Positions 611 to 17,221 of a DNA stretch of 64,000 nucleotides are shown here, piece after piece. Numbering within the stretch: the first letter of the stretch is position 1; each line of letters opens with the position of its first letter. This DNA is from Vicinamibacterales bacterium (lineage in GTDB: Bacteria; Acidobacteriota; Vicinamibacteria; Vicinamibacterales; 2-12-FULL-66-21): positions 24,242 through 88,241 of the forward strand of contig DASPXV010000059.1 of assembly GCA_035637115.1 (NCBI GenBank). Reading direction: 5' to 3'. The notes under the pieces are model-generated. The model saw only the letters and a list, made by a program, of their open reading frames with translations, was not told where the DNA came from and did no database searches. The position numbers were made by a program, and so were the translations under genes.

Positions 611-2056
611 TTAGCCGACCGATCCTTCCAGGCTGACACTGAGGAGCTTCTGCGCTTCCACCGCGAATTCCATCGGGAGCTCGCGGAACACTTCCTTGCA
701 GAAGCCGCTGACGATCATGTTGACGGCGTCTTCCGTCGGCAGGCCGCGCTGGCGGCAGTAGAAGATCTGGTCTTCGCCGATCTTCGACGTGGACGCTTCG
801 TGCTCGACCTTCGCCGACGTATTGCGAATCTCGAGATACGGGAACGTATGCGCACCGCACTTGTCGCCGATCAGCAGCGAATCGCACTGCGAGTAGTTGC
901 GGGCGTTCGACGCGTTCTTGCCGATCCGCACCAGGCCGCGGTACGTGTTCTGGCCGTGGCCGGCGGAAATCCCCTTCGACACGATCGTGCTGCGGGTGTT
1001 CTTCCCGAGATGCACCATCTTGGTGCCGGTGTCCGCCTGCTGCCAGTTGTTCGTCGTCGCCACCGAATAGAATTCGCCGATCGAGCCGTCCCCCTGCAGG
1101 ATGCAGCCCGGGTACTTCCAGGTGATCGCCGAACCGGTTTCGACCTGCGTCCAGGTAATTTTCGAATGCCGCCCCTGGCACAGACCGCGCTTCGTGACGA
1201 AGTTGTAGATCCCGCCCTTGCCTTCCTTGTCGCCGGGATACCAGTTCTGGATCGTCGAATACTTGATGGTCGCATCGTCGTGCGCGACGAGCTCGACGAC
1301 AGCGGCGTGGAGCTGGTTTTCATCGCGCATCGGCGCCGTGCAGCCCTCGAGATAGCTCACGTAGGAGCCCTCGTCCGCGATGATCAGCGTGCGCTCGAAC
1401 TGCCCCGTGTCCTTCGCGTTGATGCGGAAGTAGGTGGACAGCTCCATCGGGCAGCGGACCCCCTTCGGCACGTAGACGAAGGAGCCGTCGCTGAACACCG
1501 CCGAGTTGAGCGCGGCGAAGAAATTGTCGGTGTGCGGCACGACGGAGCCGAGATATTTCTTCACGAGATCCGGGTGGTGCTGTACCGCCTCGGAGAACGA
1601 CATGAAGATGATCCCCATGCTCGCGAGCTTGTCGCGGAAGGTCGTCGCGACCGAGACGCTGTCGAACACGGCGTCAACCGCGACGCCCGCGAGGAGCTTC
1701 TGCTCTTCGATCGGGATGCCGAGCTTGTCGAAAGTCGCCTTCACCTCGGGATCGACTTCGTCGAGGCTGTTCAGCGCTTTCTTCTTCTTCGGCGCCGAGT
1801 AGTAAATGATGTCCTGGTAGTTGATCGGGTCGTACTTGACGTTCTGCCAGCTCGGCTCCTTCATCGTGAGCCAGAGGCGATACGCCTTGAGACGCCACTC
1901 GAGCAGCCACTCGGGCTCGTTCTTCTTCTTCGAGATGAGCCGCACGACGTCCTCATTGAGTCCCTTCGGGATCGACTCGCTCTCGACGTCGGTGATGAAG
2001 CCGTACTTGTACTCGCGATTGGCGAGTTGTTCGATGGTCTCAGTTGCTGTGCTCAT
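611..2056 (-). CDS. sufB: Fe-S cluster assembly protein SufB
   Basis: 481-aa ORF: [27 protein letters not shown]...[34 protein letters not shown]... This is typical full-length SufB. Confidence 0.95.
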
Positions 2057-2068
2057 GGCAGCTTTCGT

Positions 2069-2395
2069 CTAAACGCTGAACGAGGTTCCGCACCCGCACG
2101 ATGATTTTGCGTTCGGGTTGTTGAAGATGAATCCCTTGCTGACCAGGCTCATGTCGTAGTCGAGCGTGGTGCCGTCAAGGAATCGGAAGCTGCGGGGATC
2201 GACGTAGACCTTCGATCCATCCGGACCGTCGAAGACGCGGTCCCCTTCGCGCGGCGCCGCTTCCCAGGCGAATGTGTAGCTGAGTCCGGAGCAGCCGCCC
2301 GCCTTGATTCCGATGCGCAGTCCGCCGTCCGGGATGCCGTTTTTTGCGGTCATTTTCCGGATCAGCTTCCCCGCGTTTTCACTGATTTGAAGCAT
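2069..2395 (-). CDS. IscA/HesB-family iron-sulfur cluster insertion protein
   Basis: 108 aa with ...GLRIGIKAGGCSGLSYTF... and a C-terminal ...SSCGCGTSFSV cysteine motif. It lies upstream of sufB. Confidence 0.85.
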   Translation of the reverse strand: MLQISENAGKLIRKMTAKNGIPDGGLRIGIKAGGCSGLSYTFAWEAAPREGDRVFDGPDGSKVYVDPRSFRFLDGTTLDYDMSLVSKGFIFNNPNAKSSCGCGTSFSV

Positions 2396-2475
2396 CGGCT
2401 CTAAACACCGACCATATGAGTCTTATATTACCACTTACGCGCGTCGTGCTAAAGGGGTTAAGCGCGCTCGAGGTG

Positions 2476-3588
2476 CTAATTGTGCTGGATTTCGTTGAGC
2501 CAGCTGAGGATACCGCCCGAGAGGTTGACCGCCCGGGTATAGCCCTTGCCGCGCAGCAGCGTCACCGCGCGCGCGCTCCGCGCGCCGGATCTGCAGTGGA
2601 CGACGATCTCGCGGGAGGGATCGATTTCGTCCAGGCGCCGAGGCAATTCGCCGAGGGGAATCAGCAGGGATCCCGGGATGCGCGATTCCGCAGCCTCTGC
2701 CGGTTCGCGGACGTCGAGGATGACCGGTACGCGTCCCGCGTCGATGCGCGCCTTCAGTTCGCGTGCCGTCATCTCCGCCACCGCAGGCGAACAGGGCGCC
2801 GCGTATTCACGCAGCGCCGTGATCGTTGGACGCGTCCCGCACACCGGGCAATCGGGATCTTTCGGCAGCTTCAGGTCGCGGAACCGCATCTTGAGCGCGT
2901 CGTAAATCAGGAAACGGCCGACGAGCGGCTCGCCGACGCCGAGAATCCACTTGATCGCTTCCGTCGCCTGAATCGTGCCGATGATACCCGGCAGCACTCC
3001 AAGCACGCCCGCTTCCGCGCAACTGGGCACGAGCCCGTCGGGCGGCGGCTCCGGATGCAGGCAGCGATAACACGGGCCGCCGGGCGCGGCGAATACCGAC
3101 GCCTGACCTTCGAAGCGGAAAATGCTGCCCCACGCGTTGGGTTTTCCGTACAGCACGCAGGCATCGTTGACGAGGTATCGCGCGGGAAAATTGTCAGTGC
3201 CATCGAGGACGACGTCGAACGCCTCGACGAGTTTCTTTCCGTTCGCCGCCGAGAAGCGCGCCTCGAACGTCTCGACGCGCACCTCGGGATTCAGCGACTC
3301 GAGTCTCGCCTGCGCCGCTTCAAGCTTCGAGCGGCCCACGTCGTTCGCGCCGTAGATGATCTGGCGCTGCAGATTGCTGACGTCGACGACGTCGAAGTCG
3401 ACCAGCCCGATCGTGCCCACGCCTGCGGCGGCGAGATAGAGTGCCGCCGGTGAACCGAGGCCGCCAGCGCCGACACAGAGGACGCGGGCAGCCTTCAGGC
3501 GCCGCTGCCCCTCGTTGCCTACCTCAGGCAGCAGGAGGTGCCGACTGTATCGCTCGCGCTCGCGCGGGCTCAGCTGGGCGTGATCCAT
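2476..3588 (-). CDS. moeB: MoeB/ThiF-family adenylyltransferase with a C-terminal rhodanese domain (MoeZ-like)
   Basis: RYSRHLLLPEVG..., the nucleotide loop VGAGGLGSP, CYRCL...CPVCG zinc motifs, and a C-terminal ...VVHCRSGARS rhodanese active-site loop. Confidence 0.85.
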   Translation of the reverse strand: MDHAQLSPRERERYSRHLLLPEVGNEGQRRLKAARVLCVGAGGLGSPAALYLAAAGVGTIGLVDFDVVDVSNLQRQIIYGANDVGRSKLEAAQARLESLNPEVRVETFEARFSAANGKKLVEAFDVVLDGTDNFPARYLVNDACVLYGKPNAWGSIFRFEGQASVFAAPGGPCYRCLHPEPPPDGLVPSCAEAGVLGVLPGIIGTIQATEAIKWILGVGEPLVGRFLIYDALKMRFRDLKLPKDPDCPVCGTRPTITALREYAAPCSPAVAEMTARELKARIDAGRVPVILDVREPAEAAESRIPGSLLIPLGELPRRLDEIDPSREIVVHCRSGARSARAVTLLRGKGYTRAVNLSGGILSWLNEIQHN

Positions 3589-6438: not shown

Positions 6439-7605
6439 ATGATGCTTTTCGACTACACTTGCCCGATGAAACTCGAAACGTTCGCGCTCGAACGTTTTCA
6501 GTCGATCTGGGAAAACCGGGTCGCGTGGAACGTGTCCGAAAGTGGCGTGCATCCGCTGCGCGTCGCCGAGCTGGTGGACACCACCGAGCTGCGCGACGCG
6601 CTCCTGGAACACGAGCTCGGATACCCGCAGACCAACGGCACCGTCGAACTGCGCGAGCTGATCGCCGCGATGTATCCAGGCGCGACGCCTGAGCACGTGC
6701 AGGTGACCAACGGCGGCTCCGAAGCGAACTGCGTGCTGCTGATGCGGCTGGTGGAGCCGGGCGACGAGATCGTCTTCATGACGCCGAATTACATGCAGGC
6801 TTCAGGGCTTGCACGCGCGCTCGGCGCCACAGTGCGGCCGTGGCGCCTGCGCGAGACAGGCACGGGCGAAGATGCGCGCTGGATGGCGGACCTGGACGAG
6901 TTGAAGGACCTGGTCGGCGCGCGCACGCGGGCGATCCTGCTGTGCAACCCGAACAACCCCACGGGCGCGCGCGTCGAAGAGGCAGCACTCGATGAAATTT
7001 GCCGGATCGCATCTGCGGTCGGTGCCTGGGTGATCGGCGACGAGATCTATCGGGGCGCGGAACGCGTGGCCGACGACACGCCTACCGTATGGGGCCGCTA
7101 CGAGCGCGCGATCGTATCGAGCGGATTGTCGAAGGCGTACGGCCTGCCGGGACTCCGCATCGGATGGAGCGTGGCGCCGCCTGATCTGATCTCGGACCTC
7201 TGGGCAATCCATGACTACACGACAATCGCGCCCGGCGGGATCAACGATCGCCTCGCGCGGACGGCGCTGACTCCCGAACGACGCGAAATCCTGCTGGCCA
7301 GGACCCGCGGCATCATCCGCACGAACTACCCGCTCGTGCGCCGATGGATCGAGAAGCAGGACGGATTGAGCCACATCGCGCCGGAAGCGGGCGCAATCGT
7401 GTTCGTGAAGCACCAGCACCCATTCCGATCCTCAGAGCTCACCGAACGGCTGCGCGATGAGCGCAGCGTACTCGTGGTGCCGGGCGATTACTTCGACATG
7501 GACGGCTACCTGCGCATCGGCTTCGGCTCTGACCCGGATTACCTCGCGTCGGCGCTGACGCTCATCGGCGAATTCCTGGCTTCCATCGGCATGCATGCGG
7601 GCTGA
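6439..7605 (+). CDS. Class I/II PLP-dependent aminotransferase
   Basis: 388 aa with ...NPNNPTGA...SSGLSKAYGLPGLRIGW..., which contains the PLP-lysine motif. Confidence 0.8.
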   Translation: MMLFDYTCPMKLETFALERFQSIWENRVAWNVSESGVHPLRVAELVDTTELRDALLEHELGYPQTNGTVELRELIAAMYPGATPEHVQVTNGGSEANCVLLMRLVEPGDEIVFMTPNYMQASGLARALGATVRPWRLRETGTGEDARWMADLDELKDLVGARTRAILLCNPNNPTGARVEEAALDEICRIASAVGAWVIGDEIYRGAERVADDTPTVWGRYERAIVSSGLSKAYGLPGLRIGWSVAPPDLISDLWAIHDYTTIAPGGINDRLARTALTPERREILLARTRGIIRTNYPLVRRWIEKQDGLSHIAPEAGAIVFVKHQHPFRSSELTERLRDERSVLVVPGDYFDMDGYLRIGFGSDPDYLASALTLIGEFLASIGMHAG

Positions 7606-8671
7606 TCTCGCGCTGGTCGGCTTCGGCCACGTGGGACGACGGTTCGCGCGCCTGATCGAGGAACGGCGCGACTGGCTGGCGCTCGACTACGACCTCGAAT
7701 GCCGCGTCGTCGGCGTCGCCACACGTCATCACGGCAGCGTGTTTCGCGAGTCGGGGCTCGACGGTGTCGCCATGGCCGTGAACGTCGAGAGCGGTCATCC
7801 GATCGTGCAGCCCGGCATCGAGGCCGCGGATGGTTTCGAAGTGATCAAGCAGCTCTCCTCCACGGACGCCCCGGTGAAGGTCGTCGTCGAAACGACGATG
7901 CTCGACATCGCCGCCGGGCAGCCGGCGATCGATCACGTGCGCGCGGCATTGCAGGCGGGGTGTCACGTGACGACGGCGAACAAGGGGCCGGCCGCGTTCG
8001 CCTTCGAGGAGCTCAGCGTTCTCGCGGACGATCGCGACAGATCGTTCCTGTTCGAGGGCGCGGTGATGGACGGCGTTCCGATTTTCAACTTGGTGCGCGA
8101 GACGCTGCCGGCCGTGCAGATCACCGGACTCCGCGGCGTCATCAACAGCACGACGAACCACATCCTGACGGCGCTCGAGGACGGTCAGAGCTTCGACGCC
8201 GCGTTGCAGCGGATGCAGGCGCTCGGCATCGCGGAAGCGGATGCGTCGCTGGACGTTGACGGCTGGGACGCCGCGGCGAAGACATCGGCGCTCGCGAACG
8301 TGCTGATGCGCGCGCGAATGACACCGCAGGCCGTGGAAAGGGAAGGAATCGGGCCGGCGACCGCACGGCTAGCCATGGCCGCGAAGGCGCGCGGCGCGCG
8401 CGTGCGGCTGGTTGCTTCCGCGCGCACCACGCCTGACGGTGTGATGACCTCGGTCCGGCCGGTGGAGTTGCCCGAAACTGATTTGCTGGCTGGCCTTCGC
8501 GGAATGGCGAACGCGCTGATCCTGCAGACCGATCTGCTCGGCGAGGTCGCAATCTGCCAGTTGAGCGGCAGCCTGACCCAGACCGCTTATGCGTTACTCA
8601 GCGACCTGGTTACGATCCGCCGCCGCCTGCCGCCAATGCCGCACGCAGCCGTGCCTGGTCGAATCCGGTGA
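7595..8671 (+). CDS. Homoserine dehydrogenase-family oxidoreductase
   Basis: The N-terminal sequence LVGFGHVGRRF is Rossmann-like. Later motifs are ...VTTANKGP... and ...EGAVMDGVPIFN... The start overlaps the aminotransferase stop by 11 nt. Confidence 0.7.
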   Translation: MRADLALVGFGHVGRRFARLIEERRDWLALDYDLECRVVGVATRHHGSVFRESGLDGVAMAVNVESGHPIVQPGIEAADGFEVIKQLSSTDAPVKVVVETTMLDIAAGQPAIDHVRAALQAGCHVTTANKGPAAFAFEELSVLADDRDRSFLFEGAVMDGVPIFNLVRETLPAVQITGLRGVINSTTNHILTALEDGQSFDAALQRMQALGIAEADASLDVDGWDAAAKTSALANVLMRARMTPQAVEREGIGPATARLAMAAKARGARVRLVASARTTPDGVMTSVRPVELPETDLLAGLRGMANALILQTDLLGEVAICQLSGSLTQTAYALLSDLVTIRRRLPPMPHAAVPGRIR

Positions 8672-8858
8672 TGACTTGGTCGCCGATCACGATTGTTGGA
8701 ACAGAGCGGGCGCCCAGCGCCATCAGCTCGTCATAAGCCGTGTCGTCTTCCTCGATGTTCTTCGCTTCGAACGGGTGCCCTTCGCGTGAAAGAAACTCCT
8801 TCACCAGATCGCACGCGCGTCAACGCGAGCCGGAATACACAGTGATCTTCAGCGCCAT
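8610..8858 (-). CDS. Small glutaredoxin/NrdH-like protein with an in-frame TGA at the CxxC position (candidate selenoprotein, UxxC)
   Basis: The tail of track ORF 8820..9212 (MALKITVYSGSR) and track ORF 8610..8804 are in the same frame, separated only by TGA at 8822..8820. Joined they read MALKITVYSGSR-U-RACDLVKEFLSREGHPFEAKNIEEDD...SVPTIVIGDQVITGF... Confidence 0.55.
8786..8804 (-). promoter_or_regulatory. Candidate bacterial SECIS stem-loop
   Basis: The mRNA sequence GUGAAGGA-GUU-UCUUUCAC starts 16 nt after the UGA. It forms 8 bp including one G.U pair, with GU in the apical loop. Confidence 0.4.
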
Positions 8859-8867
8859 ATTCCTAGT

Positions 8868-10019
8868 ATGACGCCGCTCGAGAACGTCACGGTTCTGGAT
8901 TTCAGCCGGGTGCTGGCCGGGCCGTACTGCACGATGCAGCTCGGAGACCTCGGCGCGCGAGTCATCAAAATCGAGCAGCCGGGACGCGGCGACGACACGC
9001 GCGCGTGGGGACCGCCGTTCGTGAACGGCGAAAGCGCCTACTTCCTGAGCGTCAATCGCAACAAGGAAAGCGTGGCGCTCGATCTGAAGGACGACAGCTC
9101 GCGGCCGATCGTCGCAGCGCTTCTCTCGCGGGCCGACATCCTCGTGGAGAATTTCCGGCCGGGCACGATGGAGCGTCTCGGGTTTGGATACGACGCGATA
9201 GCGGCGAAACACCCACGCCTGATCTACTGCTCGATTTCAGGCTTCGGGCAGACGGGCCCGCGCAGCGCCGAGGCGGGCTACGACGCGATGATCCAGGCCG
9301 AGGGTGGGTTGATGAGCATCACGGGAGCGCCGGAGGGGTCCCCTTACCGCCTCGGCGTGGCGATCGGCGATATCGCCACCGGCATGTTCGCCGTCCAGGC
9401 GATCCTGGCGGCCCTGCTCGTGCGCGAGCGGACGGGCCGCGGGCAGCGCGTCGACATCGCGATGCTGGACTCTGTGACATCGCTGCTCACTTACCAGGCA
9501 TCCAGCGCGTTCGCCACCGGGGTCACGCCAACGCGGATGGGCAATCGTCATCCATCCATTGCGCCGTATGACACGTTTGCTGCCGCGGACGGCGAGTTCG
9601 TGCTTTCCGTCGGTAACGACGAGCAATTCCGCCGTCTTTCAGAAGTCCTCGGGCGTCCGGCACTCGCGCAGGATTCCCGCTTCGTGACGAATGCACAGCG
9701 CGTGGAGAACTACGAGGTGCTGAGGCACGAGCTGTCGGGGCTTCTCGTCAACTGGACCCGCGAGAAAGTGCTTGCCGCGTTGACCGCTGCAGGAGTGCCG
9801 TGTGGCGCGGTGCGCACCGTGACAGAGGCGCTCGCCGATCCGCAGCTGGCCGCGCGCGACATGATCGTTCCGCTCGAACATGCGACCGCGGGGCCCATCA
9901 AGGTGCTCGGCACACCGCTGAAGCTGTCTGAAACGCCCGCGAGAATCCGCACGCCGCCGCCTGCGCTGGGTCAACACACGGCCGCGGTGCTGCGAGAGCT
10001 GGGATTTACCGTTCGATAA
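8868..10019 (+). CDS. CaiB/BaiF family III CoA-transferase
   Basis: MTPLENVTVLDFSRVLAGPYCTMQLGDLGARVIKIEQPGRGDDTRAWGPPF... is the canonical family III N-terminus. Confidence 0.85.
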   Translation: MTPLENVTVLDFSRVLAGPYCTMQLGDLGARVIKIEQPGRGDDTRAWGPPFVNGESAYFLSVNRNKESVALDLKDDSSRPIVAALLSRADILVENFRPGTMERLGFGYDAIAAKHPRLIYCSISGFGQTGPRSAEAGYDAMIQAEGGLMSITGAPEGSPYRLGVAIGDIATGMFAVQAILAALLVRERTGRGQRVDIAMLDSVTSLLTYQASSAFATGVTPTRMGNRHPSIAPYDTFAAADGEFVLSVGNDEQFRRLSEVLGRPALAQDSRFVTNAQRVENYEVLRHELSGLLVNWTREKVLAALTAAGVPCGAVRTVTEALADPQLAARDMIVPLEHATAGPIKVLGTPLKLSETPARIRTPPPALGQHTAAVLRELGFTVR

Positions 10020-10448: not shown

Positions 10449-11165
10449 CTAGTCCGCGCGCGGTCGCGAGCGCGCGACGTTGATCGCCATCAAGCCACCG
10501 AGCAGCGCCACGACGCGGCAACCCTCGAACCCGGAGTGCTCGAGCAGCGATGACACTGCGGCGGCGCCAGGATAGCGGGAAATCGATGCGGGAATGTACC
10601 GATACGTGTCCGCATTGCCATGAAGCAGCCAGCCGAGCGCTGAGCCGACGACATTCAGGTAGCCGAGGTAGACGGCGCGAACGATCGCATTCGACGGGCG
10701 ATCGAAGTCGAGAGATACAAACGTGCCGCCCGGTCGCAGCACGCGGTGGATTTCATTGATCGCGGGTTGAATCCTCGGGACGTTGCGAATGCCATAGCCG
10801 GCCGTGACGATGTCAAAGGCTGCGTCCGGGAATGGCAAAGACGTCATGTCGCCGGCAACGAACGGTACGCGGCCCTTCGAACGCGCGATCCGGAGCATCC
10901 GCAGCGTGATGTCGAGGCCCGTAACCTGTGCGCCGCAATCCGCGAGGGCGAAGGCGATGTCGCCGGTGCCGCACGCCAGGTCCAGCGCGCGCGATCCCTG
11001 CCGTACGTTCGCGAGATTGACGAGCCGTTTCTTCCACGAACGATCGCGGCCGAACGAGAGCAGCACGGTGATCAGGTCGTAGCGATCGGCAATGGTGTCG
11101 AACAGCCGTCGCACGTAGCGCGCCTTCGTCTCGGGCGAGGCGAGCGCACCGCGGAGATCCGTCAT
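10449..11165 (-). CDS. ubiE: UbiE/MenG-type quinone C-methyltransferase
   Basis: ...YVRRLFDTIADRYDLITVLLSFGRDRSWKKRL...LDLACGTGD...YGIRNVP...EIHRVLRPGG... The ATGA start-stop overlap is with the upstream cupredoxin gene. Confidence 0.8.
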   Translation of the reverse strand: MTDLRGALASPETKARYVRRLFDTIADRYDLITVLLSFGRDRSWKKRLVNLANVRQGSRALDLACGTGDIAFALADCGAQVTGLDITLRMLRIARSKGRVPFVAGDMTSLPFPDAAFDIVTAGYGIRNVPRIQPAINEIHRVLRPGGTFVSLDFDRPSNAIVRAVYLGYLNVVGSALGWLLHGNADTYRYIPASISRYPGAAAVSSLLEHSGFEGCRVVALLGGLMAINVARSRPRAD

Positions 11166-11527
11166 TCCACGGTTATCGTACCCTTCATCATCGACGCATG
11201 CGGCGTGCAGTTGTACTGTGCGCTGCCGCGGTCGGGTGCGCGAAACTCCACGGTCGCTTCGCCGCGTCCGGCCAGGACGGGGGTCGCGATACCCCAATCC
11301 GGAATCGTGAAATCGTGGCGCATGCCCGTGTCGGCGTTGCGAAACACGATGCGCACCGTTTCACCCGCGCGGACGCGAACCACTGGATTGGGTTCTGCGC
11401 TCCCGTCAGCGTAGAAGGTCATGTTGCGCGCGACCAGGCGTATCTCGCGTGGCTGCGGTCCTGACGACAGCGACAGCAGCAGGCACACGCAGGCAAGTTT
11501 GTCAGCCAACGAGCATCCCCGTTCCAT
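11162..11527 (-). CDS. Cupredoxin (type-1 copper-like) domain protein
   Basis: Signal-like ...KLACVCLLLSLSS, then ...RHDFTIPDW... and ...YNCTPHASMMKGTITVE, which gives a C-x2-H-x3/4-M copper-ligand pattern. An alternative in-frame TTG start lies at 11509. Confidence 0.65.
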   Translation of the reverse strand: MERGCSLADKLACVCLLLSLSSGPQPREIRLVARNMTFYADGSAEPNPVVRVRAGETVRIVFRNADTGMRHDFTIPDWGIATPVLAGRGEATVEFRAPDRGSAQYNCTPHASMMKGTITVE

Positions 11528-12683
11528 ACATCACGGCAAACCCGCCGAGGAGTCCGAGCATCACTGGCGCCGATGCAAATCGTGCGGAAGGCTCGCGCGA
11601 GATCTGCCGTGAGAGTTGATGGACGACCTGTGCAATCGCGCCGGCCCCGAGGCCCAGGCAGAACACCGCCGCGACCGGCGAATAGACGAAGCCGCCGAGC
11701 CATGCGCCGGCGATTGTCGGGGCGCCGCCTATCAGCCCGAGCTGCGCCAGGAATCGGATCGAAGGGCGCTCCTTCGCGATCGGCGACAGGATCGCGAGTC
11801 CTTCGGTCGTGTTGTGCAGCGTGAATCCGACGATCAGCAAGGTGCCGAGCGCCGCTTCCCCGAGCGCGAATGCCGCCCCGATGGCGAGTCCCTCGCCGAA
11901 GTTGTGCAGTCCTATGCCGATCGCGATCAGCAGCGCGAGTACTGCGCCCGAACCTGTCGCACCGCCGCTGCGTCGCGCCCGCGCACGTCGCAGCCACTGT
12001 CCTGTCGTTTCCAGACCCATGTATGCCGCGGCCGCGGCGCCCGCAAATAGCGCGACGCCCTGGTACGATTCCGCCAGCTGCGATGCACCGTCGAGCCCCT
12101 CCTGCACCGCGTCGATCAGCAGGAACCCAAGCAGCCCGATCGTTACGGCCAGCAGTACGTCGAGACCACCGCGTCCGAGTCGAGCCAGGACTGGGAACCA
12201 GCAGAGTCCGAGAGCGACCGGGAGCACGCCGACATACAGACCGACGACTGCAAAACTTCCCAGTTGCGCAGCAGTCAGCCGGGGGGTCTCGACCGCAACG
12301 GCGATCTCATGCTCGAACGTTGCCCCGGTGGACGTCAGGACCTTCACGAGATGGGCTTCACCCTCGACCCAGGGGTATGGCACGTGAATCGTGGTTCCGG
12401 CCAGGTGCCGCAGTGTCGGACCAGTGGTGCTCGTGAATGCCCAGTAGGCATCATCCACCGTGACCTGCGCGATGGTGACAGGGTCTGGACCGTCGTTGAG
12501 AACGGCGAGGCGGATGCCATCAGCTCCGAGCGAGGCGCGCGAAATCGTGAGCCGCTCCACGGGAGGCATCGCCGCCGGACGCAGTGTGTCGCCGGGTTGG
12601 AGCCTGACGATCGCCATGATGAGCAGGGCCAGGAGTACGAGTGGAACCGCTGCCCAGAACCAGACTGCAGGATTACGTTGCAC
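11502..12683 (-). CDS. ZIP-family divalent metal transporter with an N-terminal extracytoplasmic extension
   Basis: C-terminal half: ...GIGLHNFGEGLAIGAAF...GFTLHNTTEGLAI..., which are ZIP signature helices. The first ~130 aa form an extra domain following one TM helix. Confidence 0.8.
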   Translation of the reverse strand: MQRNPAVWFWAAVPLVLLALLIMAIVRLQPGDTLRPAAMPPVERLTISRASLGADGIRLAVLNDGPDPVTIAQVTVDDAYWAFTSTTGPTLRHLAGTTIHVPYPWVEGEAHLVKVLTSTGATFEHEIAVAVETPRLTAAQLGSFAVVGLYVGVLPVALGLCWFPVLARLGRGGLDVLLAVTIGLLGFLLIDAVQEGLDGASQLAESYQGVALFAGAAAAAYMGLETTGQWLRRARARRSGGATGSGAVLALLIAIGIGLHNFGEGLAIGAAFALGEAALGTLLIVGFTLHNTTEGLAILSPIAKERPSIRFLAQLGLIGGAPTIAGAWLGGFVYSPVAAVFCLGLGAGAIAQVVHQLSRQISREPSARFASAPVMLGLLGGFAVMYGTGMLVG

Positions 12684-13719
12684 GGCGTGCCTCCACGGCT
12701 TCGAACATGCCCATCCAACCCAGCTCGGCGAACTCGCTCTGGTGTGCGTGGAACATGAACTTTCCCGGGTAGCGGAAGCGGGTTTCGAGCACGGCGCGTT
12801 CTCCCTGGCAGAGCATCACCGTATCGGTTCGCTCGGTGGTCGCGAGCGAGGTCCCGGTTCGGAATACGTCGAAGAACATTCCATGCAGGTGCAGGCTGTT
12901 GACGAGATCGAACTCGGTCACGTTGACGACGTACATCCGTACGAGGGCGCCGACGTTCACGCGAATCGGCTCGGACATGAAGTGGTGCGCGACCGTGTTC
13001 ACGGCGTAGACCTCGTTCTCCGCGTCGAAGTTCGTGTCGAACGCGTTCATCACCATCACCAGTTCGTCGGCAGGAGGCCGCGGCGTTTTGGGATCCACGA
13101 TGAAGGCGCCATACAGCCCCTTGTGCATGTGGCGTTTCAAGGGAACGGCGTGGCAGTGATACAGGTGCATCCCGAACGGATCCGCATCGAACTCGTAGAC
13201 GAAGCTTCCTCCCGGCTGCACCTGGTGCTCCGGAAGCGAGCCGTCCATCTCGGGCGGATGCCAGCCGTGAAAATGGATCGTGTGAGGGTGCGAGCCGGCG
13301 TTCACGAACGTCACGCGCACCCGATCCCCTTCGGTCGCACGCAGCGTGGGTCCGGGCACCTGGCCGTTGAACGTCCAGGCAGGAAAAAAGATGCCCGGCG
13401 CGATTTCGATCTCCCGATCGGCCGCCACGAGCTGGTATTCACGGAGGCGAGTGCCGTCCGGACGCAGCGTCTCGCGATAGAATCGGCCGCGCTCCTCCTC
13501 GGGAAGGTGCCCGAAATTCCAGGAGCGCATGAACACGGAAGGATCGAAGGTCTCGGTCGAGACGCGGCCGACGGGCCCCATGGCATGTGCGGCATGCGCG
13601 CTGGCGTCGTAGGACCGTGCGGCCTGGCCGGATACCCGGGTTCCTGCCACGGCCGCGGTGCCCGCGGCGGCGCCCAACCCGGCGAGCTTCAGGAGAGAGC
13701 GGCGAGACAGGTTCGGCAT
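12673..13719 (-). CDS. Tat-exported two-domain multicopper oxidase (NirK/2dMCO-like)
   Basis: MPNLSRRSLLKLAGLGAAAG is a twin-arginine signal. Copper motifs are HPHTIHFHG, LYHCHAVPLKRHMHKGLYG and FMFHAHQSEF. Confidence 0.8.
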   Translation of the reverse strand: MPNLSRRSLLKLAGLGAAAGTAAVAGTRVSGQAARSYDASAHAAHAMGPVGRVSTETFDPSVFMRSWNFGHLPEEERGRFYRETLRPDGTRLREYQLVAADREIEIAPGIFFPAWTFNGQVPGPTLRATEGDRVRVTFVNAGSHPHTIHFHGWHPPEMDGSLPEHQVQPGGSFVYEFDADPFGMHLYHCHAVPLKRHMHKGLYGAFIVDPKTPRPPADELVMVMNAFDTNFDAENEVYAVNTVAHHFMSEPIRVNVGALVRMYVVNVTEFDLVNSLHLHGMFFDVFRTGTSLATTERTDTVMLCQGERAVLETRFRYPGKFMFHAHQSEFAELGWMGMFEAVEARRAT

Positions 13720-13738
13720 CTTTGATATCCTTCGATAG

Positions 13739-13776
13739 TAATAGTTTTGACAAATCAAAATACATAATTCTATTAT
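13739..13776 (+). promoter_or_regulatory. Sigma-70-like promoter with an overlapping palindromic operator in an AT-rich divergent spacer
   Basis: TTGACA (13747..13752), an 18-nt spacer, then TATTAT (13771..13776), with the ATG at 13787. A perfect palindrome TTTTGA-caaa-TCAAAA (13745..13760) overlaps the -35 element. An outer pair TAATAG/CTATTA is also present. Confidence 0.45.
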
Positions 13777-13786
13777 ACGAAGTCAA

Positions 13787-15238
13787 ATGGCGCTCCCCTC
13801 CCCGACTGTTGAGAACTACCTGAAGGCGATCTTCCAGGCGCAGCTGCACCTCGAACGACGGACCGGTCTCGTGCCGATGGGCCAGCTGGCTGCCGCCCTG
13901 GGCGTCGTGCCTGGAACGGCGACGACGATGGTGAAGACGCTGGCGGACTCGGGGCTGGCGAAGTACGAGCCCTACGCCGGCGTGCGCCTGACGCCTTCCG
14001 GCGAGAAGCTCGCGGCGCTGGTCGTGCGGCGTCACCGATTGATCGAGTTGTTCCTGGTAAAAGTGATGGGCATGAGCTGGACCGAGGTCCACGACGAAGC
14101 CGAACTGCTGGAGCACGCGGTGTCGGATCGGCTGATCGAGCGCATCGACGAAATGCTCGGCCGTCCGGAAGCAGATCCACACGGCGATCCGATTCCCGAC
14201 GCGGAGGGAGTACTCGAGCGGCGTCCGTTCGACACACTGCTCACATGCCCGTTGAATGCACCGGTGACGGTGCGGCGCGTGACCGATCAGGACCCGGAGT
14301 TCCTGCACTTCGTTGAACGCCGCGATCTGAAGCCGGGCGAGACCGTGGAAGTGATCGAGCGGGATGCGGCAGCGGACAGCGTGCGCGTGCGCGGCCGCAA
14401 AGAGCGCGCGATCACGATCGGCGCGCGTGCCGCGTCGAAGGTGCTCGTGCAACTGGCGACGGTCGCCACCATCGTTCTCGCGTTCGCGGCGGCCGGGTTC
14501 GCGCAAACGGTGGCGCCGCAGCCGGCAGCGCAACCGTTCCAGATTCTCGACAACTCATTCTTCGTCGAGGAAGCGTTCAACCAGGAGCGCGGGATCTTCC
14601 AGAATATTTTCGGCATGAGGCACGAGGGGGGGGACTGGCAGCTCACGTTTACGCAGGAGTGGCCGGCGCCGGCGCAGCGGCATCAGCTCTCCTACACGGT
14701 CGCGGCGGAATCCGTCGGGTCGAAGTCAGGCTTTGGCGATGTCTATCTGAACTACCGGTTCCAGGCGTTGGAGGAAGCCGGCGGACATCCCGCGTTCTCG
14801 CCGCGCGTCAGCGTCATCGTTCCATCGGGACGGCAGTCAACAGGCGCCGGCGAAGGCGGACTGCAGGTGAATCTCCCGTTCAGCAAGCAGCACGGCGACG
14901 TCTACTTTCACTGGAATGGCGGCTTCACGTGGCTGCCGCGCGGCGAGCGCGTCGATCTCGTCTCGCCTACGCTCGCCGGAAGCGCGATCTACCGACTCAG
15001 GCCGATGCTGAATCTGATGCTCGAGTCCGTCCTGGCGTTCGACGCCGATGAGACTTCACCCGGCATCGTCGAACGGACACGCGCGTTCACTCTGTCTCCG
15101 GGAGTGCGCGGCGGATGGAACGTGGCCAAGGACACGCAGCTGGTTCTTGGCGCGGCACTGCCGATCACACGCGTCAGTGGTGACGCGTCGGTCGGCGTGT
15201 TCGGGTACGTGTCGTACGAATTACCGTTCGTGAAGTGA
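13787..15238 (+). CDS. DtxR/MntR-family metal-dependent regulator (aa 1-221) read through, without a stop, into a signal peptide and a beta-barrel-like outer-membrane protein (aa 222-483)
   Basis: N-terminal part: ...TVENYLKAI...VRLTPSGEKLA...RRHRLIELFL...HDEAELLEH..., plus an SH3/FeoA-like tail. Then comes LATVATIVLAFAAAGFAQT and a segment with alternating beta-strand-like pattern ending ...GYVSYELPFVK. Confidence 0.7.
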   Translation: MALPSPTVENYLKAIFQAQLHLERRTGLVPMGQLAAALGVVPGTATTMVKTLADSGLAKYEPYAGVRLTPSGEKLAALVVRRHRLIELFLVKVMGMSWTEVHDEAELLEHAVSDRLIERIDEMLGRPEADPHGDPIPDAEGVLERRPFDTLLTCPLNAPVTVRRVTDQDPEFLHFVERRDLKPGETVEVIERDAAADSVRVRGRKERAITIGARAASKVLVQLATVATIVLAFAAAGFAQTVAPQPAAQPFQILDNSFFVEEAFNQERGIFQNIFGMRHEGGDWQLTFTQEWPAPAQRHQLSYTVAAESVGSKSGFGDVYLNYRFQALEEAGGHPAFSPRVSVIVPSGRQSTGAGEGGLQVNLPFSKQHGDVYFHWNGGFTWLPRGERVDLVSPTLAGSAIYRLRPMLNLMLESVLAFDADETSPGIVERTRAFTLSPGVRGGWNVAKDTQLVLGAALPITRVSGDASVGVFGYVSYELPFVK

Positions 15239-15631
15239 GTACGTCGCGACGGACGTCGGGGTTTCCCAGACTCTAACGGACTGAATGTCCACACCGAGCT
15301 CGCGCCCGTTGTCGAAAATCAGTTTCGCGATGCGCTCGACGGTGGGATTACTCTCGAGCAGGTACATCGGTTCGCCGAGCTTCCGCAGCGGCTCGACGAG
15401 CGGATCGTCCTGGCGCAGAATCATCTTGTGGTCGAGTTCGCGATCGATCCAGCCTTTGACGATCCGCTTGATGTCGCTGAAGTCGACCACCATGTTGCGA
15501 TTGTCGAGGCTGTCGGTCCGCACGTCGATTTCGACGGACGCATTGTGACCGTGCGGATGCTTGCACACGCCGTCATAGTCGAGCAGGCGGTGTCCGTAGC
15601 AGAACTCGATGCGCTTGGTCACGAGGTACAT
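15221..15631 (-). CDS. queD: 6-carboxy-5,6,7,8-tetrahydropterin synthase (QueD/PTPS family)
   Basis: MYLVTKRIEFCYGHRLLDY...CKHPHGHNASVEI...VVDFSDIK..., including the His/Cys catalytic motifs. Confidence 0.85.
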   Translation of the reverse strand: MYLVTKRIEFCYGHRLLDYDGVCKHPHGHNASVEIDVRTDSLDNRNMVVDFSDIKRIVKGWIDRELDHKMILRQDDPLVEPLRKLGEPMYLLESNPTVERIAKLIFDNGRELGVDIQSVRVWETPTSVATYSLHER

Positions 15632-16328
15632 GTCTCACGAGTATAAAGCCACCGGCGTGCTGTTTTCCGGCGGGCTCGACAGTGCAGTGCTCGCTGCACA
15701 AGCGGCACGTGAAGGTGCGGTGCGCACGCTGTACATCAGCGTCGGCTTCGCGTGGGAGGCGGAAGAACGCGCGATGGCCGCGCGGCTTTTCTCGCGGCCG
15801 CCGTTCGCCGGCCACGTCGATCCTCCGGTCGAACTCGCCTTCGATATGCGTGACGTCTTCCCGCCCGACTACTGGGCGGTCCGGGGTGTCGCGCCGGCAT
15901 TCGATACACCGGATGAAGACGTGTACCTCCATGGACGGAACATCATCCTGCTCTCGAAAGCCGCGGTATACATGGCGGCAGCGTTGTCGAAGCAGCACGT
16001 TCGCGTCATGCGGCTGCTGATGGGGCAGCTCGCCGGCAATCCCTTCCCTGATGCCACGCCGGCATTCCTCGCCGCCACAGCCACCTCGCTTTCGCTCGGA
16101 TTGTCGATGTCGATCGAGGTGGCGACGCCGTTCGCGTCGCTGAGCAAGGCGGATGTGATCCGTCGAGGCGTGGAGCTCGGCGTGCCGCTGGAGCTCACGC
16201 TGTCGTGCATGCAGCCACGCGGGGGATTGCACTGCGGCCGCTGCAGCAAATGCAGAGAGCGGCGCGACGCCTTCAGGCAGGCAGGTGTGATCGATCCGAC
16301 GCGGTACGAGAGCGCGCCGATCCGCTGA
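15630..16328 (+). CDS. queC: 7-cyano-7-deazaguanine synthase
   Basis: MSHEYKATGVLFSGGLDSAV is a PP-loop, and ...SCMQPRGGLHCGRCSKCRERRDAF is the zinc cluster. An alternative ATG start lies at 15609. Confidence 0.85.
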   Translation: MSHEYKATGVLFSGGLDSAVLAAQAAREGAVRTLYISVGFAWEAEERAMAARLFSRPPFAGHVDPPVELAFDMRDVFPPDYWAVRGVAPAFDTPDEDVYLHGRNIILLSKAAVYMAAALSKQHVRVMRLLMGQLAGNPFPDATPAFLAATATSLSLGLSMSIEVATPFASLSKADVIRRGVELGVPLELTLSCMQPRGGLHCGRCSKCRERRDAFRQAGVIDPTRYESAPIR

Positions 16329-16333
16329 GCGTG

Positions 16334-17221
16334 CTAACTGACCTTCAGGTGAATGCCGCCGTCGCCGGTCCGGATCGTGAGCGTCTTGCCTCCGGCACCG
16401 AGCGTGCCGCGCAGAGTACGGCGCTCTGATTCACTGTTCTCGTTCTGGATCTTCAGATCGTTTCTGATCGTTCCGTCGCCGGTATGCGCGTCGAGCTGCG
16501 CCCCGAAGTCTGTTGGCAGGTAGAGCACGATGCCACCGTCTCCGGTAACCAGCGACCAGTCTGCGTTCATCACGGTGCCCGGCTCCGCGCGAAACGTGAT
16601 CGCGCCGTCACCGGTGTGCAGCTTCACGCCGCCCAGTTTTCCAGCAACGCTGACGCTGCCGTCGCCGGTATCGATATTGACGTCTCCTTCGGCGTTGTCG
16701 ATGGTGACCGAGCCGTCGCCGGTCGCGATCGTCATCTGTCCCGCGACTTCGCTCGCGCGGATGCTGCCATCGCCGGTCCGCAGATCCAGCCGTCCGCGGA
16801 CGCGCTCGATACGGATTGCGCCGTCGCCACTCCGCGCCGTCACGTGACCGTCGCGCGGCATCGTGACAATCAGGCTCGCCGTGGGCGACATCCGACCGAT
16901 GCCCAGCAGCACCATGTCCTTCGGCGGGCGCTTCACTTCAATCTCGATGCGGTCCCCGTCTTGTTTCGTTTCGATCTTCAGCTCGTCGATCGCTTCCTGC
17001 GTCGGCCCGCGCTTCTCGATCTCGACGAGCACGGTCTTCGTGTCCGCGGAGCGGATCTGGATCGATCCGTCGAACGTCGTGAGCTTCAGCTCAGGCGTTC
17101 CTGTAATCGTGAAGCGCTTCTCATCGCGCGCGATGTGTCCCTGGGAGTCGACGACGACGCAGCCGCCCAACGCGAGCGGCAGGAGCGCTGCCGCGCAGAC
17201 AGCGGGGAGTACAGATTTCAT
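16334..17221 (-). CDS. DUF4097-like beta-strand-repeat lipoprotein
   Basis: The lipobox MKSVLPAVCAAALLPLALGGC is followed by many T/SGDG(S/A)(I/V) repeats. Confidence 0.7.
   Translation of the reverse strand: MKSVLPAVCAAALLPLALGGCVVVDSQGHIARDEKRFTITGTPELKLTTFDGSIQIRSADTKTVLVEIEKRGPTQEAIDELKIETKQDGDRIEIEVKRPPKDMVLLGIGRMSPTASLIVTMPRDGHVTARSGDGAIRIERVRGRLDLRTGDGSIRASEVAGQMTIATGDGSVTIDNAEGDVNIDTGDGSVSVAGKLGGVKLHTGDGAITFRAEPGTVMNADWSLVTGDGGIVLYLPTDFGAQLDAHTGDGTIRNDLKIQNENSESERRTLRGTLGAGGKTLTIRTGDGGIHLKVS

Follow-up and report, generated by a model that had tools for sequence, protein, structure and literature searches.

The subject of this analysis is a small gene on the minus strand (8858..8610) of a 64,000-nucleotide stretch of DNA from a Vicinamibacterales bacterium of the phylum Acidobacteriota (assembly GCA_035637115.1, contig DASPXV010000059.1, positions 24,242 to 88,241 of the forward strand), which is referred to throughout as the window. 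The gene is interrupted by an in-frame TGA at 8822..8820, and comparison with related sequences indicates that this codon is very probably decoded as selenocysteine (Sec), yielding an 82-amino acid glutaredoxin with a UxxC active site from a message in which a hairpin of the bacterial Sec insertion sequence (SECIS) type lies within the reading frame. Public records hold a 64-amino acid short form (NCBI HYT65893.1); the full-length protein, in either its C or its X version, was absent from a collection of 15 billion proteins when sought by exact look-up.

The complete gene comprises 82 sense codons, the UGA being counted as Sec, and runs from an ATG at 8858..8856, whose Met is kept upstream of the TGA in related loci, to a TAA stop codon at 8612..8610. 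The TGA is the sole interruption of the minus-strand frame 8858..8610. An earlier interpretation made from the DNA letters by themselves (the sequence-only reading) had described two open reading frames (ORFs) in one frame, split by a single TGA and giving an 82-residue product when read through, and we recovered identical coordinates and sequence. The same reading had put the TGA at the first Cys of a CxxC redox motif. Translation bears this out: the UGA is residue 13 of the protein, aligns with the catalytic Cys or Sec of CxxC homologues, and opens an active-site motif U-R-A-C (UGA CGC GCG UGC) at 8822..8811. When C is substituted for U, the protein matches the Pfam Glutaredoxin domain (PF00462) from end to end, over profile positions 1-60 of 60, scoring 46.7 bits against a gathering cut-off of 22.9 (E 3.8e-12). 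The 64-amino acid product, which starts at a GTG at 8804..8802, spans profile positions 16-60 only, and does indeed lack the N-terminal part and the active site, as had been claimed for it.

The sequence-only reading had also called the protein 'NrdH/YruB-like', which holds as a description of resemblance and fails as a family assignment. These families give the best NCBIfam similarities, yet the scores fall below both curated cut-offs, at 69.9 bits against 88.55 for the YruB family (TIGR02196) and 54.8 bits against 85.75 for NrdH (TIGR02194); a further model, NF007657, scores 31 against 131. The motifs CVQC and WSGFRP, which characterize NrdH-redoxins, are missing from the 82-amino acid sequence, and matches to NrdH proteins in the PDB reach E values of about 1e-7 to 1e-6. 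Nor does the protein belong to the Uxx-star family (NF041212), against which it scores 42.3 bits for a cut-off of 66, with related models at 23-28 against 72-100. Since the scores for YruB, NrdH and Uxx-star all lie below their cut-offs, the protein is best described, from its sequence, as a glutaredoxin-fold redoxin of the small NrdH/YruB-like kind that stands outside those curated families. Its best match among solved structures is the Clostridium oremlandii glutaredoxin Grx1 (PDB 7c10/7c12), with an E value of 5.5e-13 and 31 of 75 residues identical (41%), residues 1-75 aligning with residues 1-75. The catalytic residue of Grx1, which is Sec in the native protein and Cys in the crystal, aligns with U13, as expected of a Sec-glutaredoxin.

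A protein search returned 508 homologues, and gene-call lengths were examined for the best 120 of these. Of that number, 119 are calls of 63-69 amino acids beginning (M)VKEFLSR, just past the TGA, several of which carry the name 'glutaredoxin family protein [Vicinamibacterales bacterium]'; the only full-length entry among the best 120 is P0005 (91 amino acids), which has CRAC at the active site. For comparison at the level of DNA we compiled a clade set of 88 sequences, consisting of the window, 7 genome loci and 80 metagenome loci from Vicinamibacteria and other Acidobacteriota, which span 55-99% protein identity and of which 75 are unique over 141 nt. TGA occupies the first CxxC column in 88/88 sequences, comprising the window, all seven genome loci (7/7; Vicinamibacteria and uncultured Acidobacteriota, at 55-78% identity) and all of the metagenome loci (80/80). 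Among related assemblies, GCA_035699745.1 and the 1.9-Mb contig CAVWLB010000008.1 are examples in which the gene is present. One of the two metagenome scan patterns demanded a Cys codon at the TGA site, and its bias, if any, is towards Cys forms.

A lone in-frame stop may be artefactual when it comes from one assembly, and the TGA might accordingly be put down to a sequencing or assembly error, or the gene to a pseudogene. The TGA-bearing sequence recurs in records of different source and sample (NCBI WNGA01038794.1, the Logan assembly of SRR10360623 and ENA ERZ27253208). Because the TGA is conserved throughout the clade set, which draws on many samples and assemblers, and the frame is intact on both sides of it, both explanations can be set aside as having negligible probability.

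The codons that surround the TGA vary in the manner of coding sequence on both sides of it. Within the motif, some relatives have H or L in place of R, or S in place of A, so that URAC, URSC, UHSC and ULSC all occur, and the second Cys is invariant while being written synonymously as TGC in 56 and TGT in 19 of the 75 unique sequences. Upstream of the TGA, Tyr is kept in 73/75 of the same sequences (TAC in 39, TAT in 34), Gly is invariant with four codons and Val is likewise written with four. Except where a contig end truncates the locus, all related loci have a Met 10-13 codons before the TGA, as well as a conserved upstream segment Met...(I/V)-V-Y-S/T-G. The 12 codons 5' of the TGA, as judged from this pattern of substitution, evidently evolve as coding sequence under protein-level selection. 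More distant homologues from Oceanicoccus, Tahibacter, Bacillus and others have CxxC at the TGA column, and the single Cys-form relative recovered, P0005/L098, has TGC in place of TGA. Aligning homologues at this column, as the sequence-only reading had proposed, thus found TGA in every recovered sequence of the clade and Cys in more distant homologues. Orthologues starting at the equivalent of the GTG and lacking CxxC, which would have told against that reading, turned out to be the opposite of what exists, in that the TGA and the segment upstream of it are both kept.

These observations bear directly on whether the public annotation is correct, with the TGA a true stop or part of an untranslated leader, and translation starting at GTG 8804 (or at an ATG one codon earlier, in many relatives) to give a 64-amino acid fragment without strand beta-1 and the redox motif. 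Such a product is what gene callers and NCBI record, both for the window and in the 119 similar calls noted above; the GTG is invariant at the equivalent of 8804, and an ATG directly precedes it in 30/75 unique sequences. Against this, the fragment covers an incomplete Glutaredoxin profile, and the 12 upstream codons together with U-R-A-C are kept as protein across 88 loci, with synonymous variation, and align to residues 1-16 of a solved glutaredoxin. The codon before the GTG encodes M, L or Q, which does not amount to a conserved start, and the invariance of the GTG is accounted for by its place in the hairpin stem described below. Finally, where the TGA is replaced it becomes TGC and not another stop. 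We therefore consider it highly improbable that the annotated fragment is the true product.

The hairpin occupies 8804..8786 on the minus strand, within the coding sequence. Its stem is formed by GUGAAGGA (8804..8797) pairing with UCUUUCAC (8793..8786) around an apical loop GUU (8796-8794), making 8 bp of which one is G-U. The stem begins at the 16th nt after the UGA, leaving a gap of 15 nt, and the spacing from UGA to loop is 23 nt. All of this agrees exactly with the hairpin that the sequence-only reading had placed here, including the GU in its loop. Across the clade the 19-nt hairpin reads GUGAARGA-GUU-UCUUUCAC, and the RNAalifold consensus of 69 sequences keeps all pairs.

The codons that make up the hairpin are frozen to a degree not seen in their neighbours. 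In the 75 unique sequences, Val is GTG in 75, Glu is GAG in 75, Leu is CTT in 75, Ser is TCA in 75 and Phe is TTT in 73, whereas flanking codons for Arg, Ala, Cys, Asp, Glu, Gly and His show free synonymous variation; the Arg codon directly 3' of the stem, for instance, is found as CGC, CGA, CGG and CGT. The six hairpin codons have a mean codon entropy of 0.19, compared with 0.89 elsewhere (Mann-Whitney p = 0.001). Three of the frozen codons are uncommon choices in this 65% GC genome, as their shares of the respective codon families in window genes are 12.6% for TTT, 6.7% for CTT and 6.1% for TCA, for a joint probability of 5e-4. At other sites in the gene CTG and CTC predominate for Leu, and the one other Phe is written TTC in 71/75 sequences. 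Such variation as the hairpin does tolerate leaves the fold in place: AAG and AAA alternate at its variable position (29 versus 40 sequences), which exchanges a G-U for an A-U pair and retains the structure, while UUC replaces UUU at the edge of the loop in two sequences, where the closing A-U opens to give a loop AGUUC. Synonymous sites frozen on rare codons argue that the hairpin is selected as RNA, beyond the needs of the protein.

A natural control is provided by the Cys form, P0005/L098, in which the DNA reads TGC ... GTGAAGGACTTTCTGTCAC. Here GAG has become GAC, with loss of the loop G, and CTT has become the preferred codon CTG, which breaks an A-U pair; the predicted hairpin energy is -3.4 kcal/mol, against -6.8 and -7.1 kcal/mol in TGA forms. 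The hairpin has thus decayed where the TGA has gone. This is a single case and it lies in the expected direction. Taken together, the codon freeze and the decay in the Cys form point to selection on the SECIS at the RNA level, independent of the protein.

Two further loci from other Acidobacteriota contain a second glutaredoxin- or thioredoxin-like family (L011:355-414, in Bryobacterales, and L015:3025-3084, in Terriglobales), with an in-frame TGA at the first Cys of a U-P-P-C motif. In L011 the UGA is followed, at a distance equal to that in the window, by an 8-bp stem of different sequence, CUGAGAGA/UCUCUUGG, with a GUA loop; in L015 there is an 8-bp stem with a GGA loop about 32 nt after the UGA. 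These hairpins are the nearest available thing to covariation. The U-P-P-C genes of Bryobacterales and Terriglobales are probably further unannotated selenoproteins of the Acidobacteriota.

According to a recent review (PMC13188914, 2026), the consensus bacterial SECIS has an upper stem of 4-16 bp capped by an apical loop of 3-9 nt, with G at loop position 1 or 2 (often as N1-G-[G/U]-N-N2, with N1 and N2 paired); 16-37 nt separate the loop from the UGA, and the minimum free energy (MFE) is -7.5 kcal/mol or lower. The hairpin at 8804..8786 satisfies all of these published rules, with its 3-nt GUU loop, 8-bp stem and 23-nt spacing; its MFE is -12.5 kcal/mol in a 45-nt region and -8.4 kcal/mol for the 21-nt hairpin. 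In consensus notation the GUU loop with its closing A-U reads A-G-U-U-U. The proposal of the sequence-only reading that the element fits a bacterial SECIS is upheld by this agreement and by conservation in excess of what the protein requires. Where that reading had called for a SECIS search, the result was divided, since the pattern rules are satisfied and no Rfam covariance model matched.

Several observations weigh against Sec decoding and should be set out together. No Rfam match was obtained in the window at gathering score, or in 8700..8900 at E up to 10, meaning that the Rfam bacterial SECIS models do not cover this hairpin. The 45-nt region is no more stable than dinucleotide shuffles (z = -0.31), and the geometry filter is permissive, in that a SECIS-geometry hairpin of at least 8 bp follows 4% of the 1660 TGA triplets in the window, counting both strands. 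A hairpin of this sort, by itself and in one sequence, is no more than chance would supply; what goes beyond chance is that the TGA coincides exactly with the CxxC column in a domain of full length, combined with the comparative evidence. RNAalifold found no compensatory double substitutions in the clade stem among the 69 sequences, because the stem is invariant. Base pairing is consequently not proven by within-clade covariation, which is a real limitation, and support for pairing therefore comes from the G-U/A-U changes on one side of the stem and from L011, where the hairpin has matching geometry. With regard to the decoding apparatus, no selA, selB or selD was found when the window and related loci totalling about 458 kb were searched by tblastn with E. 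coli sequences as queries, and ARAGORN found no tRNA-Sec, and no tRNA of any kind, in the same DNA. Absence from the window and those ~458 kb is uninformative regarding the rest of the genome. A literature search, lastly, gave no description of Sec use in Vicinamibacteria.

Other searches for selenium-related genes were similarly negative within their scope. Pfam identified none in 20 ORFs between 611 and 22759, the other genes of the window having been inspected by eye and by tblastn, and on two Vicinamibacterales contigs of 200 kb no sel genes occur within 10 kb on either side of the gene. When the window was scanned for further TGAs lying in frame between stretches with coding signal, 12 candidates emerged, mostly adjacent genes or antisense frames and none with a redox motif; the filter was a weak one that missed the glutaredoxin gene. 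The Acidobacteriota at large are documented users of Sec: a 2006 survey listed three selenoprotein families, and Occallatibacter riparius has three selenoprotein genes; Sec-hydrogenases are also on record.

The searches for Sec machinery bear most upon the explanation that a suppressor or near-cognate tRNA inserts Cys, Trp or Gly at the UGA, in which case the hairpin would be a general stimulator of read-through or a pause site. This explanation is favoured by the failure of the searches just described, of DNA and of literature alike, to reveal Sec machinery in this lineage, and by the hairpin, which has neither the bulged U nor the GGUC loop known from fdhF of E. coli. Set against these points, UGA at the nucleophilic Cys of CxxC is the classic Sec site, the closest solved homologue natively carries Sec at the same column, the loop G-U and the spacing match the SelB-type model, and other Acidobacteriota are Sec users. 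Furthermore, TGA serves as a normal stop for roughly half of the window's crude gene calls (24/48), and is therefore not reassigned genome-wide. On balance we regard read-through by another amino acid as quite unlikely.

A similarly low probability attaches to recoding by a route other than SelA/SelB/SelC/SelD, whether through a lineage-specific factor that reads the 19-nt hairpin or as a selenium-dependent switch between full-length and terminated products. The invariance of the hairpin, with no covariation in 75 unique sequences, exceeds what a generic SECIS needs.

Decoding of the UGA as Sec by the bacterial Sec system thus remains the preferred interpretation, and a mechanism can be outlined under it. 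During translation, the hairpin 15 nt 3' of the UGA would act as a bacterial SECIS through its 8-bp stem and G-U-U loop, Sec insertion and SelB binding being expected by analogy with the bacterial Sec system. The 82-residue product would be a thiol/selenol-disulfide oxidoreductase in which Sec is the attacking residue of U13-R-A-C16. Sec13 would attack a substrate disulfide or sulfenate, Cys16 would resolve the mixed selenenylsulfide, and the oxidised protein would be re-reduced by glutathione or thioredoxin reductase; both substrate and reductant are suggested by analogy with known redoxins.

The glutaredoxin gene has a stable chromosomal setting. The order CoA-transferase III (divergent), glutaredoxin, homoserine dehydrogenase (convergent), aminotransferase, FGE-sulfatase-like protein, SIMPL, RmuC, ThiF/rhodanese, Fe-S assembly protein and SufB is common to the window and a pair of roughly 200-kb contigs of other Vicinamibacterales, and the gene is accordingly a syntenic chromosomal gene and not part of an island. 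Nothing among the neighbourhood genes points to a partner protein. Both flanks of the gene are compact. Its ATG at 8858 (minus) and that of the divergent CoA-transferase III at 8868 (plus) are separated by a 9-bp gap (8859-8867), and the promoter and leader of each gene must therefore lie inside the other; the gap is similarly short, by positions, in L102 and L104. The sole Shine-Dalgarno-like motif for the glutaredoxin is AGGA at 8864..8861, 2 nt from the ATG. At its 3' end the gene overlaps the convergent homoserine dehydrogenase (7595..8671, plus) by 62 nt (8610-8671), and an overlap of equal length is found in L102 and in L104 (10137..10198).

A number of other features were noted in the vicinity. 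SufB, a HesB/IscA-type Fe-S assembly protein and a ThiF-rhodanese (MoeZ-like) protein cluster at 611-3588. Selenoprotein families known or predicted elsewhere among bacteria include HesB-like and rhodanese-like proteins; the window HesB/IscA-type protein ends in the Cys-containing CGCG, and there is no in-frame TGA in its gene or in the ThiF-rhodanese gene. On the other side of the glutaredoxin is a metal-related cluster (11162-13758), made up of a small ORF (11162..11527) at the place of a cupredoxin-domain gene in L099, a membrane protein (11502..12683) whose L099 and L104 counterparts have a weak Zip-family match, and a multicopper oxidase (12673..13758) that adjoins an iron-dependent repressor. 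This last is an ORF of 483 amino acids (13787-15238) that combines a DtxR-type iron-dependent repressor and FeoA in residues 1-222 with some 260 residues without a Pfam match. Its counterparts have 149 amino acids in L102 and 226 in L104, and the long ORF could be a fusion, the result of a lost stop codon or an artefact of ORF calling. In L104 (ENA contig_133907, 200 kb), the region 12963-17071 has ThiF in two pieces, an FGE-sulfatase of 75 amino acids and an Fe-S_biosyn protein of 55 amino acids, all of which are intact in the window and L102; this suggests frameshift errors in the L104 assembly. The TGA and hairpin of the glutaredoxin are intact in L104.

If the UGA is decoded as Sec, public databases systematically mis-annotate a gene conserved on the chromosomes of Vicinamibacteria and related Acidobacteriota, presenting it as a fragment of 63-69 amino acids without its active site, and so conceal a selenoprotein of a soil lineage that ranks among the most abundant. 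Sec is retained almost universally (88/88 loci, with a single Cys form recovered), which argues that selenium chemistry in this redoxin is under strong selection and would imply that these soil bacteria have a need for selenium. The frozen hairpin and its decay in the Cys form offer a clean view of how a SECIS limits codon choice within coding sequence. On a practical level, the 19-nt hairpin is a simple DNA signature with which such genes could be found and corrected in metagenomes.

Comparison with known systems places both the hairpin and the protein among familiar types. The SECIS of E. coli fdhF has a bulged U and a GGUC loop that lies about 20 nt after the UGA. It is alike in being a coding-sequence stem-loop soon after the UGA that exposes G-U in its apical loop, and the loop distance is comparable, at 23 nt in the Vicinamibacterales hairpin. 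The latter differs in having a perfect 8-bp stem, with no bulged U, and a loop GUU (or AGUUY if the closing A-U opens) in place of GGUC; the clade hairpin has no conserved lower stem.

The closest known counterpart of the protein is the Grx1 of C. (Alkaliphilus) oremlandii, from Kim et al. 2011, as cited in PMC13188914 and PMC7642778. Natively this is a selenoprotein whose active site is U(C)PXC; the crystallised form had Cys in place of Sec, and Grx1 has been proposed as the reductant of the selenoprotein MsrA (PMC7642778). Like it, the Vicinamibacterales protein is a single glutaredoxin-fold domain of about 82-84 amino acids with Sec first in U-x-x-C, at the same column, and the two have in common the VKEFLS helix, the cis-Pro (VP) and the GFD motif. 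They differ in motif, which is U-P-H-C in Grx1 and U-R-A-C (also URSC, UHSC or ULSC) here; in host, a high-GC soil lineage of Acidobacteriota as opposed to Clostridium; and in genomic context, since the present gene lies between CoA-transferase III and homoserine dehydrogenase and has no msrA neighbour. The NrdH/YruB-like proteins (TIGR02194, TIGR02196) and Bacillus cereus BC3987 (PDB 3zit) are alike in size and fold and include the best NCBIfam similarities, and they differ in having Cys where the Vicinamibacterales protein has Sec.

That UxxC proteins of the thioredoxin fold are an established class of selenoprotein, as the sequence-only reading had stated, is amply borne out. Sec-glutaredoxin (PF00462, UxxC) is among the experimentally verified bacterial selenoprotein families (PMC13188914), and has been reported from Geobacter, Alkaliphilus and Moorella (2006 survey); the selenoproteome surveys consulted make no mention of the Vicinamibacteria clade. 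The window gene resembles the listed family (e.g. Geobacter sulfurreducens WP_010943784.1) in its Pfam domain, its UxxC motif and its in-frame UGA with a hairpin in the coding region, a likeness drawn from listed features and not from a sequence alignment with WP_010943784.1. Since Sec-glutaredoxins are already established, the biology is not new in kind; what is new is a previously unrecognised member of the family.

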